Shown one piece after another: positions 37,142 through 44,274 of a stretch of DNA of 58,554 nucleotides; the first letter of the stretch is position 1, and every line of letters starts with the position of its first letter. The DNA is taken from NCBI GenBank assembly GCA_964585475.1, contig CAZPDF010000007.1:1-58554 (forward strand), given 5' to 3'. The position numbers and the translations under genes are program-made. This DNA is from an uncultured Candidatus Saccharibacteria bacterium. GTDB taxonomy: Bacteria > Patescibacteriota > Minisyncoccia > Sungbacterales > HO2-52-23. The notes below the pieces were generated by a model. The model was not told where the DNA came from and searched no databases. It worked only from the letters and a program-made list of their open reading frames with translations.

Positions 37142-38530
37142 ATGGAAAATTTTTCAAAAAAAATTAGCAATGATTTTTTGCCACTTGTGGATGCCGCCAA
37201 ACTTTACGGAGTGAGTAAGGACTATCTTCGCTTTCTCATTTTCAAGAAAAAGTTGCGGGGGCGTAAGCTCGGAAGGAATTGGGTGACGACGCTCGACTGG
37301 CTTGATCAATATTTTTCATCGGTTACGCGCAGGAACGGAAATGGCGAGAAGGCGGTTGTTGCCCCCGCCTCGGATTCGGACCCGTTGCGCCCCGAGCCAG
37401 AAGCAAATGCGTCTATAAACGATACCGTTGGCCGCGATTTTGCTTCGGATGGCAAGGGCGAGCTCTTGCCCGCGCGGCCAGAAGCGGATCGCGGACTTTT
37501 GTCTTCAAGTGCCTCCGCGCCGGTCCTGGCGCTGCCCAGACCCGCCCTCCTGCCGTTGACTACGGCCCTGCTTAAATCCGACCTCTTTTCGCTTCTCTCG
37601 CGGCTCTCCGCTTCCATCCAATTCCCTCGGACCAAGTTTTTACTTTTCTCGGTTAAGCAAGCAGTCCTTTTGCTTCTGGTGTCTCTTGTGCTCTTTGCCG
37701 CCGGTACATCCGGCGTATCTCTCTGGAGGAACCGGGCCTTAGTTGCGCGCGAGCCAAGCTTGGTGCCGCAGATTTTCGGAACTTACCCGCAATTTATCCG
37801 GCAGTATATTGCGAGCGTTGTCGAAGGGCTGACCAAGGTGGCGCAGGTTACGGGAGTTGCGGTCCCGAGATCCGCGCCGCTTACCGATACCGGTGCGGGC
37901 ATAGGCATTCGAGTGCCGGTCGTAAATCCCGACGCGGAGGATGGGGATCTCGTGAGTTTTGTTAACGGGCAATATATTTTGAGCGCGGCACCCTTTGATC
38001 CAGCAATTTTCGGAGTGATAAGCATTGATCCGGCGATCACCATTGATGTTGCGCAAGTCGGTTACCCCGTAATTTCTTCGGGAACAACCTTCGTTCGCGT
38101 ATCAACCGTAAACGGTTTAATTCGGAGCGGAGACCTTATCACTACCTCTCAAATTCCGGGCATCGGCTCCAAAGCCGATGGGTTTGGATATGTACTGGGC
38201 AGGGCACTGGATAATTTCGTCAATGAAGACCCCGAGGTTATCGGCAAAGTCCCCGTTTCGGTAAATATTCGTCCTCACACTCCTTTTGCCAGTATTGTTG
38301 CAAGTCCCCGGGAAACCCTGCGCTATATCTTGGCTTTCGTCATTGCCGCAGGTTCTGTGGTGGTCGGATTCGTATACTTTGGCAAGGTGGCTAAAAGTGG
38401 CGTCGATGCTCTGGGGCGGAATCCCATGGCCGCGCGCCTTATACAATTTGGCGTGTTTTTGAACCTTTTCTTGACGCTTGGCATAATCGCGGTCGGTGTA
38501 ATTATCGCCTACGGGATCATTATTTTTTAA
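37142..38530 (+). CDS. HTH / TM / beta-rich domain / C-terminal ATP synthase c-subunit-like hairpin protein
   Basis: N-terminal excisionase-like HTH ([23 protein letters not shown]). One TM helix around aa 175-198. The last 70 aa align by eye to F-type c subunits around GRNP (the RQP loop), but TM2 has no Asp or Glu. Confidence 0.5.
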
Positions 38531-38548
38531 TTACTAGTTATTAAAACC

Positions 38549-39286
38549 ATGTCTTTCGAGCCCCAATCCATATTTCTATCTTCCTCCTACGCCACCGGGT
38601 TTTTGGCCTTGAGCACCCTTTTGCTTGGTGCCTGCATATTTTTAGGTGTAGCTCTTTGGAGGAGGCGCCCGGTATATGACGAGGATCTGGAGAGGAGGAA
38701 AAGAGACGCGGAGGCATCAGCCAAAGAAATTATTTCGCGGGCACGGGACGAGCAGATCCGGATCATTCAGGAGGCAGAGCGTAAAGCCGTTGATTTATTG
38801 CACAAAGTCGAGTTTACGAATGCGGTGGCCTCCGACGTTTCGCGCGAACTCGGGGTTGTCCTTAAAGAATTTTTGGCGGGTGAGAGCGGTCGACTCTCGC
38901 AGGCCGCGGAAGAATTTTTGCGTGTCTATCGTTCCATAGGCGAGAACTCAGAAAAAGTATACACCCAAACCCTTGATTCGGCCGCGAGCATCATGACCGA
39001 GAACGCCCGCGAAACCATGCTTAAATTTGAGCAGTCGTTAAAGCAGGAACTTGCCAGGTACGAAACGGCGACGAACGACCGGATCAAAGAATGGCAAGCG
39101 GAGGCCAGGAGTGAGATCGAACAGTATAAGGAGCGAACCTTCACCCGCATTGATGACGCTATCTACCAGATTATACTTTTTGTTTCCAAGCGCGTTTTGG
39201 GCCGGTCGCTCGATATGCGCGATCACCAAGAGTTAGTTATTCGCTCACTTGATGAAGCCAAAAAGGCAGGGTTATTTTTGCCATGA
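38549..39286 (+). CDS. atpF: ATP synthase b-subunit-like protein (extended)
   Basis: One N-terminal TM helix, a long charged coiled coil, and C-terminal VSKRVLGRSLD..HQELVIRSLDEA. Confidence 0.5.
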   Translation: MSFEPQSIFLSSSYATGFLALSTLLLGACIFLGVALWRRRPVYDEDLERRKRDAEASAKEIISRARDEQIRIIQEAERKAVDLLHKVEFTNAVASDVSRELGVVLKEFLAGESGRLSQAAEEFLRVYRSIGENSEKVYTQTLDSAASIMTENARETMLKFEQSLKQELARYETATNDRIKEWQAEARSEIEQYKERTFTRIDDAIYQIILFVSKRVLGRSLDMRDHQELVIRSLDEAKKAGLFLP

Positions 39287-39287
39287 T

Positions 39288-39412
39288 CCCGTTAGAAGTC
39301 TTGGGCATAAAAATTTATGGAAATTTTTATGTCTTAGCAACGGCATGGCGTTTCTAAGAGTCGGATTTTCTCTCGTTTGGTTCGAGCGGGAAATATCTGA
39401 CTTTCTAACGGG
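39288..39412. repeat. CCCGTTAGAAGTC...GACTTTCTAACGGG hairpin element filling the atpF-atpH spacer
   Basis: The termini match the element family at 56-57.5 kb. The element sits between the TGA at 39284-39286 and the ATG at 39413. Confidence 0.7.
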
Positions 39413-39925
39413 ATGAAAACTACGCGAGATATCGAAATAACGGCCATTTTAAGAGCCGTCCGCACCAAGGAGGACAGGGAGTTGTTTTTAGGGATAGCCG
39501 AGGATTTACAAGGCGTGTTTTACCGGCTCCAGGTCGGGGAATTCGATAAGACTGAGACATTGGCGGGTCGACTGCCGGAACGTCTGGCGCGCCCCTTTTT
39601 AGCGGCGCGGGAAGTCGCTCAATACCGGCAAAACCCCGGCGTCTTCAAGAAATTTTTGGAGAATCTGAGATCCGCCTTGGACAGTATGCGGATTCTGCGC
39701 CTGGATTTGGCGTTTGATCCGACCGACGAGGCAGTCGAAAAAATACATGCGTGGGTGTCTCGGGAAGTAGGCGAGGGGATACTGCTTGATATTGATATCG
39801 ATAAAACGATTCTGGGCGGCGCGCGAATCATGTTTGAAGGCAAATATCAGGAATATACGCTTGAAAAAATGATCGAGTCGGTTCTCGCGCGCGAGCGGGA
39901 GGAAATTTTACGATTAATTAAATAG
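39413..39925 (+). CDS. atpH: ATP synthase delta (OSCP)-like subunit
   Basis: Operon position and C-terminal GGARIMFEGKYQEYTLEKMIESV. Confidence 0.5.
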   Translation: MKTTRDIEITAILRAVRTKEDRELFLGIAEDLQGVFYRLQVGEFDKTETLAGRLPERLARPFLAAREVAQYRQNPGVFKKFLENLRSALDSMRILRLDLAFDPTDEAVEKIHAWVSREVGEGILLDIDIDKTILGGARIMFEGKYQEYTLEKMIESVLAREREEILRLIK

Positions 39926-39930
39926 AGTTT

Positions 39931-42275: not shown

Positions 42276-42393
42276 CGTGTGGGATTTCTATCGGCGTCCG
42301 ATCGGCGTACCTATCAGCGTAAGATCAGCGGAGTACCGCAGATAAGGCGTTGATAAGTACGCGGATATAACGCTGAAATTAGCAAGCAAAAGT

Positions 42394-43788
42394 ATGGTAA
42401 CAGAACAAAACACGGGAATAATTTTGGGGGTAGAGGGACAGGTGGCCGAGGTGGAATTTGTCCGCACGGCTCCCTCGGTCAATGACATTTTGACGCTCGA
42501 AGATGACCCGTCGGTAAAAATGACCGTGCACTCCTCCGCCAAAACCAACACCTATTACTGTTTGGTTTTGTCGCGCACTGCGCTCCTCCGTCGCGGCGCG
42601 CGGGTGGTAAACACCGGCAGTTCCATTACTATTCCGGTCGGGCGAGGTCTCCTCGGGCGGGTTGTGGATGTGTTTGGATTGCCCTTGGACGGTGGCGGAG
42701 AAATTGTTTCCTCCGAGCGCCGGCCGATCTTCCACCCCACGCCGCCCTATGAGGAAGTTTCGGCCAGGCAGCAAATTTTGGAGACCGGCATAAAAATCAT
42801 TGATCTTTTCTGCCCGTTTCTTAAGGGTGGGAAGATTGGGCTTCTCGGGGGGGCCGGGGTTGGCAAAACCGTCATGCTCACCGAACTTTTGCACAACATC
42901 GTCATCATGCGCCGGATAGAGAAAGTTATTTCTATTTTTGCCGGAGTCGGGGAGCGGACGCGTGAGGGTCAGGAGTTGGTGGAGCGTCTCAAAGAAAAAG
43001 GGGCGCTCTCCGATGTGGCCCTCGTTCTTGGCCCCATGGGCGCTCCGCCTTCGGTAAGAATGCTCACGGCCTATACCGCAGCGACCATGGCCGAGTACTT
43101 CCGGGATATAGCGAAATCGGATGTCCTTTTCTTCATTGACAATGTTTTCCGATTTGCTCAAGCGGGCAACGAGCTTTCCACGGTGATGCATACCATTCCT
43201 TCAGAGGATGGTTATCAGCCGACCCTGACTTCCGAGATGGCCTTCTTTCACGAACGTCTTATTTCCACCTCCTCTGGCGCCGTCAGCACGGTGGAGGCGG
43301 TATATATCCCCAACGACGACATCTTGGACGCTGCGGTGCAATCGATATTTTCGCATCTTGACTCGGTGGTTGTATTTTCCCGTGAGGTCTACCAGCAGCA
43401 TCTTCTCCCCGCGGTTGACCCCTTGGCGTCTTATTCCTCCGCGCTCTCGCCCCAAACCGCAGGAGAGCTTCATTACCAGACCGCACGTGCCGCCCAGGCC
43501 TTGCTTAAAAAAGCGATTACACTGGAGCGGGTCGTGTCGCTGGTAGGGGAGTCGGAATTATCGGCCGAGGACCGGACGTTTTACCAGCGGGCAAAAAAAA
43601 TCAGGAATTTCATGACCCAGAACTTGTTTGTTTTGGAAGACCAGATTGGGTTCGCCGGCCAATACATTCCGCTCCGCACAACCATCGAAGACGTAAATGA
43701 GATACTCGCCGGAAATTATGATGCGGTACCGGCGGAAGAATTTTTGTATATAGGCAGCGCGCGGCAGATCAGAAAAAGAAGCGCGTAA
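42394..43788 (+). CDS. atpD: F1 ATPase beta subunit
   Basis: GGAGVGKT P-loop, [26 protein letters not shown]. Confidence 0.9.
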
Positions 43789-43807
43789 GAACCAGTAACA
43801 AATAACT

Positions 43808-43980
43808 GAACTGGTAGCGAGTATATTCCTAAATGTCATTCTGAGCGCAGCGAAGAATCCCCTCATTTACGGCAAGAGCTCCTTCACGGAGTTTACCCTG
43901 AGATTCTTCACTTCGTTCAGAATGACTCACGAAGGGCTCAGGACGACAACGGGGAAAAGCGCTTTACTCGCCACCAGTTC
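43808..43980. repeat. Composite palindromic element with outer GAACTGGTAGCGAGT / ACTCGCCACCAGTTC repeats
   Basis: Inner arms GTCATTCTGA at 43835, TCAGAATGAC at 43917 and TCAGGACGAC at 43937. Lies between atpD and atpC. Confidence 0.75.
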
Positions 43981-43998
43981 ACTAGTAACTAAAAAATC

Positions 43999-44274
43999 AT
44001 GGATAGCAACGCAACAATTCAAACTCCAACCCTTTCCGTAACGATTAGAGATCGCGAAGGCATTATTTTTGAGGGCCCAGTGACCGCTCTCTCCTCCTTC
44101 AACGACAAAGGGCCTTTTGACGTCTTGCCTATGCATGCCAATTTCATCTCGTTGATTCATCGCTCCCTCACCCTCCATTTCCGGGATTTGCCCTCAAGAC
44201 GCCTTGAGATGGAAACAGGAGTTCTCAAGGTGCGGGATAATATGGTTCAAGTATATCTTGGCGTTCTTCATTAG
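43999..44274 (+). CDS. atpC: F1 ATPase epsilon subunit (short, beta-sandwich only)
   Basis: Operon position and GPFDVLPMHANFISLI. Confidence 0.6.
   Translation: MDSNATIQTPTLSVTIRDREGIIFEGPVTALSSFNDKGPFDVLPMHANFISLIHRSLTLHFRDLPSRRLEMETGVLKVRDNMVQVYLGVLH

Follow-up and report, generated by a model that had tools for sequence, protein, structure and literature searches.

A patescibacterial F1-ATPase gene cluster headed by a subunit c-like hairpin protein without the ion-binding carboxylate

Known F-type ATPases and the gene cluster under study

Proton or sodium translocation by F-type ATPases requires the carboxylate of the c-ring and the a subunit. The present analysis concerns an F-type ATPase gene cluster located on a stretch of 58,554 nucleotides (hereafter the window; contig CAZPDF010000007.1 of assembly GCA_964585475.1) from an uncultured bacterium recorded as Candidatus Saccharibacteria and placed by GTDB in the Sungbacterales (Patescibacteriota). 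The first open reading frame (ORF) of this cluster, ORF1, encodes a membrane protein whose C-terminus forms a predicted hairpin resembling subunit c, and it is followed by genes for the peripheral stalk, for F1 and for a giant surface protein. In the best reading, the system arose from the F-type rotary ATPase, is specific to Patescibacteria and has one protein in place of both a and c. An operon of this kind was noticed by Kantor et al. (2013; PMC3812714), who reported for the complete WWE3 genome RAAC2 an “ATP synthase operon” with non-homologous “a, b, c” and stated that the putative c subunit resembles a transmembrane (TM) protein in ATPase operons of OP11 and WWE3 genomes. An ion-translocating c was assumed there, the direction and the ion were left open, and the subject was treated in two sentences. 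The RAAC2 operon is very probably the present system, and both WWE3 and Microgenomates (OP11) loci are among the 80 loci fetched in this work. No later description of such an operon type was found in literature searches. Features that the 2013 report does not describe are the loss of the carboxylate, the lack of an a subunit, an outer domain of the fibre-cap type, linkage with a giant protein and a long form fused to a predicted helix-turn-helix (HTH) domain.

The canonical F1Fo enzyme (atpIBEFHAGDC) and the cluster share orthologous b, delta, alpha, gamma, beta and epsilon genes in the same order, intact catalytic motifs, and a c-like hairpin with an R-(N/Q)-P loop encoded just 5' of b. However, an a subunit is missing from the cluster, and neither the carboxylate nor the GxGxGxG motif is found in its hairpin, which is not a free-standing protein of 70-90 aa but always the C-terminus of one of ~230-600 aa, so that the rotor-type subunits bear an outer beta domain; epsilon is without its C-terminal helices, and genes for a giant surface protein and HTH proteins are linked. 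The F1-like types 2 and 3 of Mycoplasma (the M. mobile gliding motor and MSC_0618/0619) are similar in having an F1 alpha/beta/gamma module without Fo a and c, in their wall-reduced or ultrasmall hosts and in their ties to very large surface proteins, and the M. mobile module is an ATP-driven motor. They differ in being of independent origin: alpha and beta found here are nearer to true AtpA/AtpD and miss the cut-offs of the MMOB1660/1670 and MSC_0618/0619 models (345 vs 600, 344 vs 850, 361 vs 570 and 236 vs 520 bits), and b, delta, epsilon and the c-type hairpin are kept. The N-ATPase (atpDCQRBEFAG) is likewise a divergent second F-type operon with a patchy distribution in bacteria, but it keeps a and a carboxylate-bearing c and adds AtpQ and AtpR; the NCBIfam alt_F1F0 cut-offs for alpha, beta and gamma were also missed (371 vs 750.5, 406 vs 752 and 24 vs 282 bits). 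The export ATPase of type III secretion systems and flagella (FliI-FliJ-FliH) shares an F1-like body, a gamma-like stalk, a b/delta-like tether, a membrane ring and a non-chemiosmotic use, but it is homohexameric with FlhA/SctV as partner, whereas the subunits found here are true F-type orthologues. Phage fibre caps (the phi29 gp12 C-terminal domain, Peptidase_G2) and cement proteins have the fold predicted for the outer domains of ORF1 and the giant protein; here, unlike in phages, the domain is encoded in an ATPase operon of a cell and is joined to a hairpin in the membrane.

According to the ORF list of the window, eight closely spaced genes lie on the + strand at 37130-51302, with one divergent gene upstream:

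36670-36891, - strand: divergent MerR/excisionase-type HTH gene, 73 aa
37142 (ATG; TTG at 37130) to 38530, + strand: ORF1 (HTH, TM helix, beta domain, hairpin), 462/466 aa
38549-39286, + strand: b-like peripheral-stalk subunit, 245 aa, single N-terminal TM helix
39413-39925, + strand: delta/OSCP-like subunit, 170 aa
39931-41391, + strand: F1 alpha, 486 aa
41403-42275, + strand: F1 gamma, divergent, 290 aa
42394-43788, + strand: F1 beta, catalytic motifs intact, 464 aa
43999-44274, + strand: F1 epsilon, 91 aa
44283-51302, + strand: giant surface protein, 2339 aa

The original prediction, made from the letters and an ORF list, had given the order as first ORF-b-delta-alpha-gamma-beta-epsilon. 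The coordinates agree with it, Pfam and NCBIfam name alpha, gamma, beta and epsilon, and family profiles back b and delta; all six points read from the sequence were checked, and the observation is confirmed. The length of 466 aa ascribed to ORF1 is right from the upstream TTG; if translation starts at the ATG (37142), the protein has 462 aa. The end of the operon at 44274 has to be revised, since the giant gene starts 8 bp past the stop codon of epsilon and appears to be part of the system.

The F1 subunits are divergent, with alpha, gamma and epsilon under family cut-offs, yet clearly F-type. Alpha matches PF00006 at E=7e-64 and scores 414 bits in the NCBIfam F0F1 alpha model (cut-off 554), with the P-loop GDQKTGKS and the Arg-finger SVTRVG present. 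Gamma matches PF00231 at E=1.6e-19 and scores 53 bits in TIGR01146 (cut-off 194), and epsilon matches PF02823 at E=7.7e-6 over aa 12-85, consisting of the beta-sandwich only, without the C-terminal helical domain. Beta reaches 470 bits in the AtpD equivalog model TIGR01039, just above the cut-off of 462.85. Its catalytic P-loop, the Glu and Arg of GERxRE and the Walker B motif (DNVFRF) are present, and the P-loop, G[VI]GER.RE and Walker B are retained in each of the 66 full-length orthologues of beta, so the intactness of the F1 catalytic motifs, as read before, extends to the family. For the peripheral stalk, single sequences gave Pfam OSCP at E=0.0088 (delta) and NCBIfam F0F1 subunit B at E=1.3e-5 (b). 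With family profiles built from 34-35 orthologues, the best PDB matches were delta/OSCP (E=1.7e-4) and subunit b (E=1.1e-6). Judged by these motifs, a competent F1 (alpha3beta3, gamma, epsilon) should be encoded, and the components of a peripheral stalk (b, delta) are present.

The Fo part gives a different picture. No atpB or atpE was found in the 58.5-kb window by a hydropathy scan of all ORFs, a hidden Markov model (HMM) of subunit c and an E. coli AtpB query, and no canonical a or c was found in 86 related loci with flanks of up to 10 kb per side (c-subunit HMM; phmmer with AtpB), the sequences behind the c-subunit HMM and the AtpB query being approximate. This bears out, for the window, the statement that no a-subunit gene and no free c-subunit gene lie in or beside the operon. 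The clusters also contain no conserved multi-TM gene able to replace subunit a. Several candidates were rejected, the multi-TM and two-TM ORFs of the window amounting to only a ZIP-type transporter and small unrelated ones: the ORF at 25390-26127 (245 aa, seven hydrophobic segments), considered as atpB, looks like a ZIP-type metal transporter from the motif HEIPQEISDFG read by eye; those at 27509-27742 (77 aa, two TM helices) and 27769-28080, considered as atpE, are not subunit-c-like; and the gap between the hairpin and b genes in one related locus (L026; related loci are denoted by L numbers), considered as an Fo site, contains a phosphoglycerate mutase-like gene instead.

Relation of the hairpin to subunit c

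The layout of ORF1, as modelled by AlphaFold2 with a 70-sequence alignment, comprises an HTH, a disordered linker (aa 70-145), a TM helix, a beta domain and the hairpin. There are 70 homologues of this long form. The mean predicted local distance difference test score (pLDDT) is 76, with 81-98 per 10-residue block in the structured domains, which are as follows:

37172-37336, + strand: predicted winged HTH, ~aa 15-69 counted from the TTG, pLDDT 95-97
37631-37750, + strand: first TM helix, aa 168-207, from hydropathy scan and AlphaFold2
37883-38269, + strand: extracellular beta domain, aa 252-380, pLDDT ~96
38306-38530, + strand: c-like C-terminal hairpin, aa 393-466, with a G-R-N-P loop

The beta domain is modelled with confidence over aa 258-379. 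The two helices of the hairpin span residues 393-428 and 432-465 (pLDDT ~85), and the loop between them contains many Lys and Arg residues, consistent with the cytoplasmic side. The model fits a topology in which the N-terminus is inside, the beta domain outside, the loop inside and the C-terminus outside; the predicted helices and the charge of the loop agree with the earlier proposal of one TM helix followed by a hairpin with a cytoplasmic loop. The HTH matches Pfam HTH_17 at E=0.0012 with 19.5 bits, under the curated cut-off of 27. The same family (PF12728) is precomputed on several ORF1 homologues, and the structures resembling this domain in Foldseek are those of Xis/excisionase.

Similarity of the hairpin to subunit c was examined at several levels. 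ORF1 alone gives no match to PF00137 even at E<=10 and does not reach the Pfam gathering threshold. When the last 85 aa were compared with PDB by phmmer, the top match was a c subunit (Chloroflexus, 9itj) at E=0.7, and a hairpin-only profile of long-form sequences found a c subunit at E=1.3, which is not significant alone; a profile of whole ORF1 was discarded, as it returned only low-complexity noise from the disordered linker. The weakness of the hairpin-only profile arises from the small diversity of the long-form sequences, and the comparison became informative after short-form relatives, described below, had been added. In a Pfam scan, 11 of 40 family members match PF00137, the family matched most frequently, with a best E of 0.0015. 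The c-subunit HMM, run over 8136 ORFs (the window plus the 86 related loci), gave hairpin proteins for all of its best 24 matches, down to E=1.5e-4. Alignment of 67 hairpins with c subunits by hhalign resulted in 80% probability, E=1.4e-5 and a score of 30.8, compared to 18.3 for the highest-scoring of 40 column shuffles and 12.0 for the alignment in reverse; the global alignment covers all 70 columns without gaps. At the level of predicted structure, the hairpin of the ORF1 model matches ~30 F-type c chains of PDB in Foldseek (target template-modelling score 0.7-0.83, root-mean-square deviation 1.6-2.2 A), that is, a two-helix TM hairpin is predicted, as in subunit c. The polar loop, R-(Q/N)-P in c subunits, is represented by G429-R430-N431-P432, which is invariant or nearly so in 70 long-form and 40 short-form sequences and aligns with ARQP/GRNP of c subunits. 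The earlier impression, formed by eye, that the last ~70 aa can be aligned to F-type c subunits is real in the family profile, hhalign and Foldseek, although weak. Since several independent weak tests agree, derivation of the hairpin from subunit c is supported at this level, yet the hairpin lacks the ion site that defines subunit c.

In the phmmer and hhalign alignments, the Glu/Asp column of the c-ring falls on L450 of ORF1, preceded by T449. No Asp or Glu occurs in the membrane core of the second TM helix (TM2) in any aligned family member. Acidic residues of TM2 are confined to one variable E/Q position, seven residues past the loop Pro (Q439 in ORF1) and close to where the helix meets the cytoplasm. 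The absence of a carboxylate at the ion-binding position, noted before for this one protein, holds family-wide, and the possibility that a careful alignment would disclose a conserved acid was examined, with L450 in the aligned column. Helix 1 has not retained the GxGxGxG motif either; in its place are the spaced small residues A402, S409, G413 and G418, and the pairwise alignment in this region pairs GLGAIGPGVGIG with an 11-letter segment. What is conserved is a different set of residues. G-R-N-P, Y416-F417-G418-K419 and G424 are (near-)invariant across the aligned relatives, S409 is a strongly conserved polar residue, T449 is kept in at least 90% of the sequences of each alignment, and position 445 is always N in the long form but may be N, H or S in more distant family members. 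The mean column identity of the hairpin is 81%. Short database entries that were inspected (P0075, P0110, P0151) look like truncated fragments.

Distribution and partners of the hairpin protein

The hairpin protein was found in at least 346 GTDB species-representative genomes by a scan of genome contigs, and a profile search of 1.84 billion representative proteins yielded 465 family representatives. Informative record titles all belong to Patescibacteria: Sungbacteria, Parcubacteria, Levy-, Woese-, Roizman-, Shapiro- and Amesbacteria, and WWE3. Many third-party annotation (TPA) records with the cluster are titled “Gammaproteobacteria” (e.g., L017, L022, L053 and L078) or “Saccharibacteria”; the former are probably mislabelled, because their gene content is of the Patescibacteria type. 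The variant is not phylum-wide, as canonical a, b and c are encoded in some Patescibacteria (PMC8672522). The supplementary tables of the same study give taxonomy and abundance for five metagenome-assembled genomes carrying the cluster, with no “F-type ATPase” entry, and ATPases are not mentioned in the main text of PMC7304191. Two architectures exist: the long HTH form, and a commoner form of ~250 aa with a signal peptide, the beta domain and the hairpin. The HTH on the hairpin protein is lineage-specific, and most relatives have the signal peptide instead.

Gene neighbourhoods were examined in the 80 loci by tblastn with window proteins. In ~70 of them the hairpin gene lies directly upstream of (b-delta-)alpha-gamma-beta-epsilon on the same strand, and this order was seen in essentially all loci that extend far enough downstream. 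Two short-form genes looked up individually sit on contigs of 1.3-1.6 kb. The survey of recurrence proposed with the original prediction is answered by these counts. No b or delta was detected beside the cluster in five loci (L034, L067, L076, L078 and L082), in which a conventional Fo would therefore be unusable. The minimal cluster of L082 (453-4959) consists of hairpin-alpha-gamma-beta-epsilon, with 8 bp from the hairpin gene to alpha. On a 5-kb contig (L060, 689-2675), gamma and epsilon are the only F1 genes behind the hairpin gene, which would bring three rotor-type parts together, with alpha and beta presumably elsewhere. An exception to the linkage is L068 (2656-3678), a WWE3 contig of 536 kb with no F1 genes within 10 kb downstream of the hairpin gene.

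The beta domain is shared by the hairpin protein and the giant surface protein encoded next to it. This protein comprises an N-terminal signal/anchor, fibre-like repeats, seven LVIVD repeats (E=1.7e-60), a beta domain and a Pro/Thr/Ser-rich tail. ORF1 aa 252-380 and giant-protein aa 1954-2103 are 31% identical (BLASTP, E=2e-7), and the latter segment is recognized by the domain HMM:

50142-50591, + strand: beta domain of the giant protein, homologous to the outer domain of ORF1, aa 1954-2103, E=2e-18

Foldseek of the ORF1 beta domain gave phage cement and decoration proteins in PDB, and C-terminal domains of phi29-type pre-neck appendages and tail-fibre C-termini in BFVD, with E down to 3.5e-12; in relatives, the domain has weak Pfam matches to XM1_gp53, Phage_cement and Peptidase_G2. 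A homologue of the giant protein adjoins the cluster in 27 other loci in three arrangements. In every long-form locus that reaches far enough, it lies 3' of epsilon; in many of the short-form loci it is upstream and divergent, and in a few it is downstream and convergent. The divergent giants of short-form loci (~1800-3200 aa if complete) usually start with a MerR-type HTH and a TM helix, as in L026 (1733-9313, - strand) and similarly in L053, L061, L066, L075 and L086, and short-form giants with a full ORF carry the shared beta domain near the C-terminus. Long-form loci encode the HTH-TM module as part of the hairpin protein, in addition to a free MerR gene. Three features, namely a domain in common, a gene linkage conserved in several arrangements and an HTH module that occurs on either partner, suggest that F1 probably acts together with the hairpin protein and the giant fibre.

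The divergent HTH gene upstream of the operon, reported before, is of the MerR type; its 73-aa product matches Pfam MerR at E=1.8e-12 and HTH_17 at E=1.3e-7. In most related loci, a MerR-type HTH is encoded divergently upstream, either free-standing or as the N-terminus of the giant protein, and it is a conserved accessory that probably regulates the divergent promoter. A candidate operator for the HTH proteins, judged by its position in the divergent promoter region, is the following repeat:

36901-36948: 16-nt inverted repeat TTGTTAAACCTTGATA / TAGCAAGGTTTAACAA, with 94% complementarity, located 10 bp from the start codon of the MerR-type gene

A second repeat, the 25-nt element GTCATTCTGAGCGNAGCGAAGAATC, occurs five times in the window, compared to zero copies expected:

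4409-4433, 31637-31661, 36593-36617, 43835-43859 and 43902-43926: copies of GTCATTCTGAGCGNAGCGAAGAATC

One copy lies inside the arginyl-tRNA synthetase (ArgRS) ORF and is translated as “..SFASLRMT..”, and an inverted pair fills the spacer between beta and epsilon (43835-43926), where L003 has a 23S_rRNA_IVP gene. The element looks like a small dispersed mobile repeat, and the pair in the spacer is probably an insertion and no part of the machine.

Other genes of the window were recorded in passing. A protein of 715 aa (51870-54017), encoded next to the giant gene, contains three Laminin_G_3 (concanavalin-like lectin) domains with pentaxin and sialidase-N-like matches and may be a further surface or host-contact protein. 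Three 23S_rRNA_IVP (four-helix-bundle) genes lie just 3' of the giant gene (51349-51873, 54057-54728 and 55496-55879), and the third also has a weak bAvd-like match; bAvd-like proteins can accompany diversity-generating retroelements. In the isoleucyl-tRNA synthetase ORF (32750-36388, 1212 aa), an inserted His_Phos_1-like segment is suggested by Pfam matches of the 1152-aa counterpart in L001.

Possible function of the complex and its significance

The mechanism we favour, with a probability of roughly 0.55, is a non-chemiosmotic, ATP-hydrolysing F1 motor seated on a c-derived element and coupled to a surface fibre. It is proposed that the hairpins would form a ring or oligomer beneath F1, with their R-N-P loops docked on gamma and epsilon. 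Having neither an a subunit nor an ion site, the complex could not carry out gradient-driven ATP synthesis or ion pumping, and would run solely as an ATP-hydrolysing motor without ion movement. The outer beta domains of the hairpin protein would engage the giant fibre, and rotation or torsion of gamma-epsilon would pass across the membrane to it. Of the two possibilities raised originally, this develops the one in which F1 sits on a non-translocating c-like anchor carrying an outer domain and an HTH. It is favoured by the homology of the hairpin, the lost carboxylate, the gene order in ~70 of 80 loci, the stalkless loci and the 2013 report (PMC3812714). What had been overlooked is that the HTH is lineage-specific, that the fibre-cap/cement-like domain is common to the giant protein, and that the arrangement is widespread and was noted in 2013.

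Several points weigh against such a motor. Every homology test is weak by itself, ORF1 has no PF00137 match of its own, and a helical hairpin is a simple fold. We infer the formation of a ring and its binding to gamma and epsilon, and the tie to the giant protein is deduced from gene neighbourhood and one shared domain. Phage fibre-cap domains are typically trimeric, so a small oligomer is possible instead of a c-ring. Without subunit a, the b-delta stalk would have no evident brace, and in the five loci without detectable b or delta, productive rotation against the membrane is hard to picture. The search for Fo spans the window and the related loci, and canonical a and c may be encoded outside them; some Patescibacteria do have canonical a, b and c (PMC8672522).

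The alternative that survives best, although still unlikely in our estimation, assumes no force-transmitting motor. A c-like oligomer would tether F1 to the membrane, and the role of the complex would be regulatory, signalling or in assembly, for example sensing of the fibre via the HTH or, in analogy to the ATPase complexes of type III secretion systems, folding and maturation of the fibre. The missing a subunit, which deprives F1 of a stator, and the undetected b and delta of five loci speak for a tether. The membrane-tethered HTH resembles one-component membrane regulators, and the shared domain resembles phage fibre C-terminal domains, which act as folding caps. However, the hairpin protein has no HTH in most lineages, and the retention of gamma, epsilon, usually b and delta, and all catalytic residues goes beyond what a tether or sensor needs.

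Slightly less probable is an ordinary chemiosmotic F1Fo with atpB and atpE encoded elsewhere. The hairpin protein would then serve in assembly, belong to a hetero-oligomeric c-ring as a minor component or be an unrelated membrane protein that is co-transcribed by chance. The visible DNA is 58.5 kb of a genome, some Patescibacteria encode a, b and c (PMC8672522), and most clusters keep b and delta, which in known enzymes hold F1 against the a subunit. Against this, the hairpin gene fills the atpB-atpE slot in ~70 of 80 loci from distant lineages, and the flanks of the loci, which reach up to 10 kb per side, contain no canonical a or c. The stalkless loci and L060, where the hairpin gene is tied to gamma-epsilon alone, are also difficult to reconcile with it, as is the invariance of the R-N-P loop, which corresponds to the gamma/epsilon-docking loop. 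In addition, a complete WWE3 genome was reported with only non-homologous “a, b, c” (PMC3812714), which suggests, although the authors do not say so outright, a closed operon-carrying genome without canonical a and c. Fo genes are presumably absent from the rest of the present genome.

Very improbable is a hairpin ring that moves an ion or ligand through a carboxylate-free site (N/H/S445, T449, Y416, K419) with an unrecognised stator. N445, T449, S409, Y416 and K419 are indeed strongly conserved polar residues. However, the known rotary ATPase rings all rely on Asp or Glu, N445 and K419 lie, as read from the hhalign alignment, one helical turn from the cytoplasmic surface and not mid-membrane, and the clusters contain no conserved multi-TM partner. 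A decaying, functionless remnant of an ATP synthase operon, which might be argued from alpha, gamma, delta, b and epsilon scoring under curated cut-offs and from the truncated epsilon, was rejected as contradicted by the conservation pattern: ORFs intact in hundreds of species, synteny across classes, beta motifs invariant in 66 of 66 orthologues and hairpin columns of 81% mean identity.

Within the favoured reading of an ATP-hydrolysing motor, a more specific and tentative picture can be drawn, which we regard as unlikely. F1 might turn or twist a carboxylate-free c-type ring whose outer fibre-cap domains hold the base of a giant trimeric adhesin, so that organisms lacking a proton-motive force could move, tension or retract a host-contact fibre. 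If true, this would be a rotary organelle powered by ATP and different from flagella, archaella, pili and the gliding motor of Mycoplasma.

The F-type ATPase variant described here is widespread in Patescibacteria, was noticed in passing in 2013 and bears on an acknowledged puzzle of their bioenergetics: a 2024 perspective called the near-universal F-type ATP synthase of these respiration-less bacteria surprising (PMC11665869). In at least 346 species, the “ATP synthase” has no c-ring carboxylate and, within the clusters, no a subunit. In that case, metabolic reconstructions in which it counts as complex V, or as a reversible proton pump, would be in error for whole classes (Microgenomatia, WWE3 and part of Paceibacteria). 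The rotary organelle sketched above, if true, would explain why many Patescibacteria without respiration keep an “ATP synthase”. The proposed motor would be a second independent redeployment of the F1 motor after Mycoplasma, by means of a c-derived TM element exposing a phage-fibre-type domain, and it offers the testable idea that ultrasmall episymbionts power surface structures with ATP.

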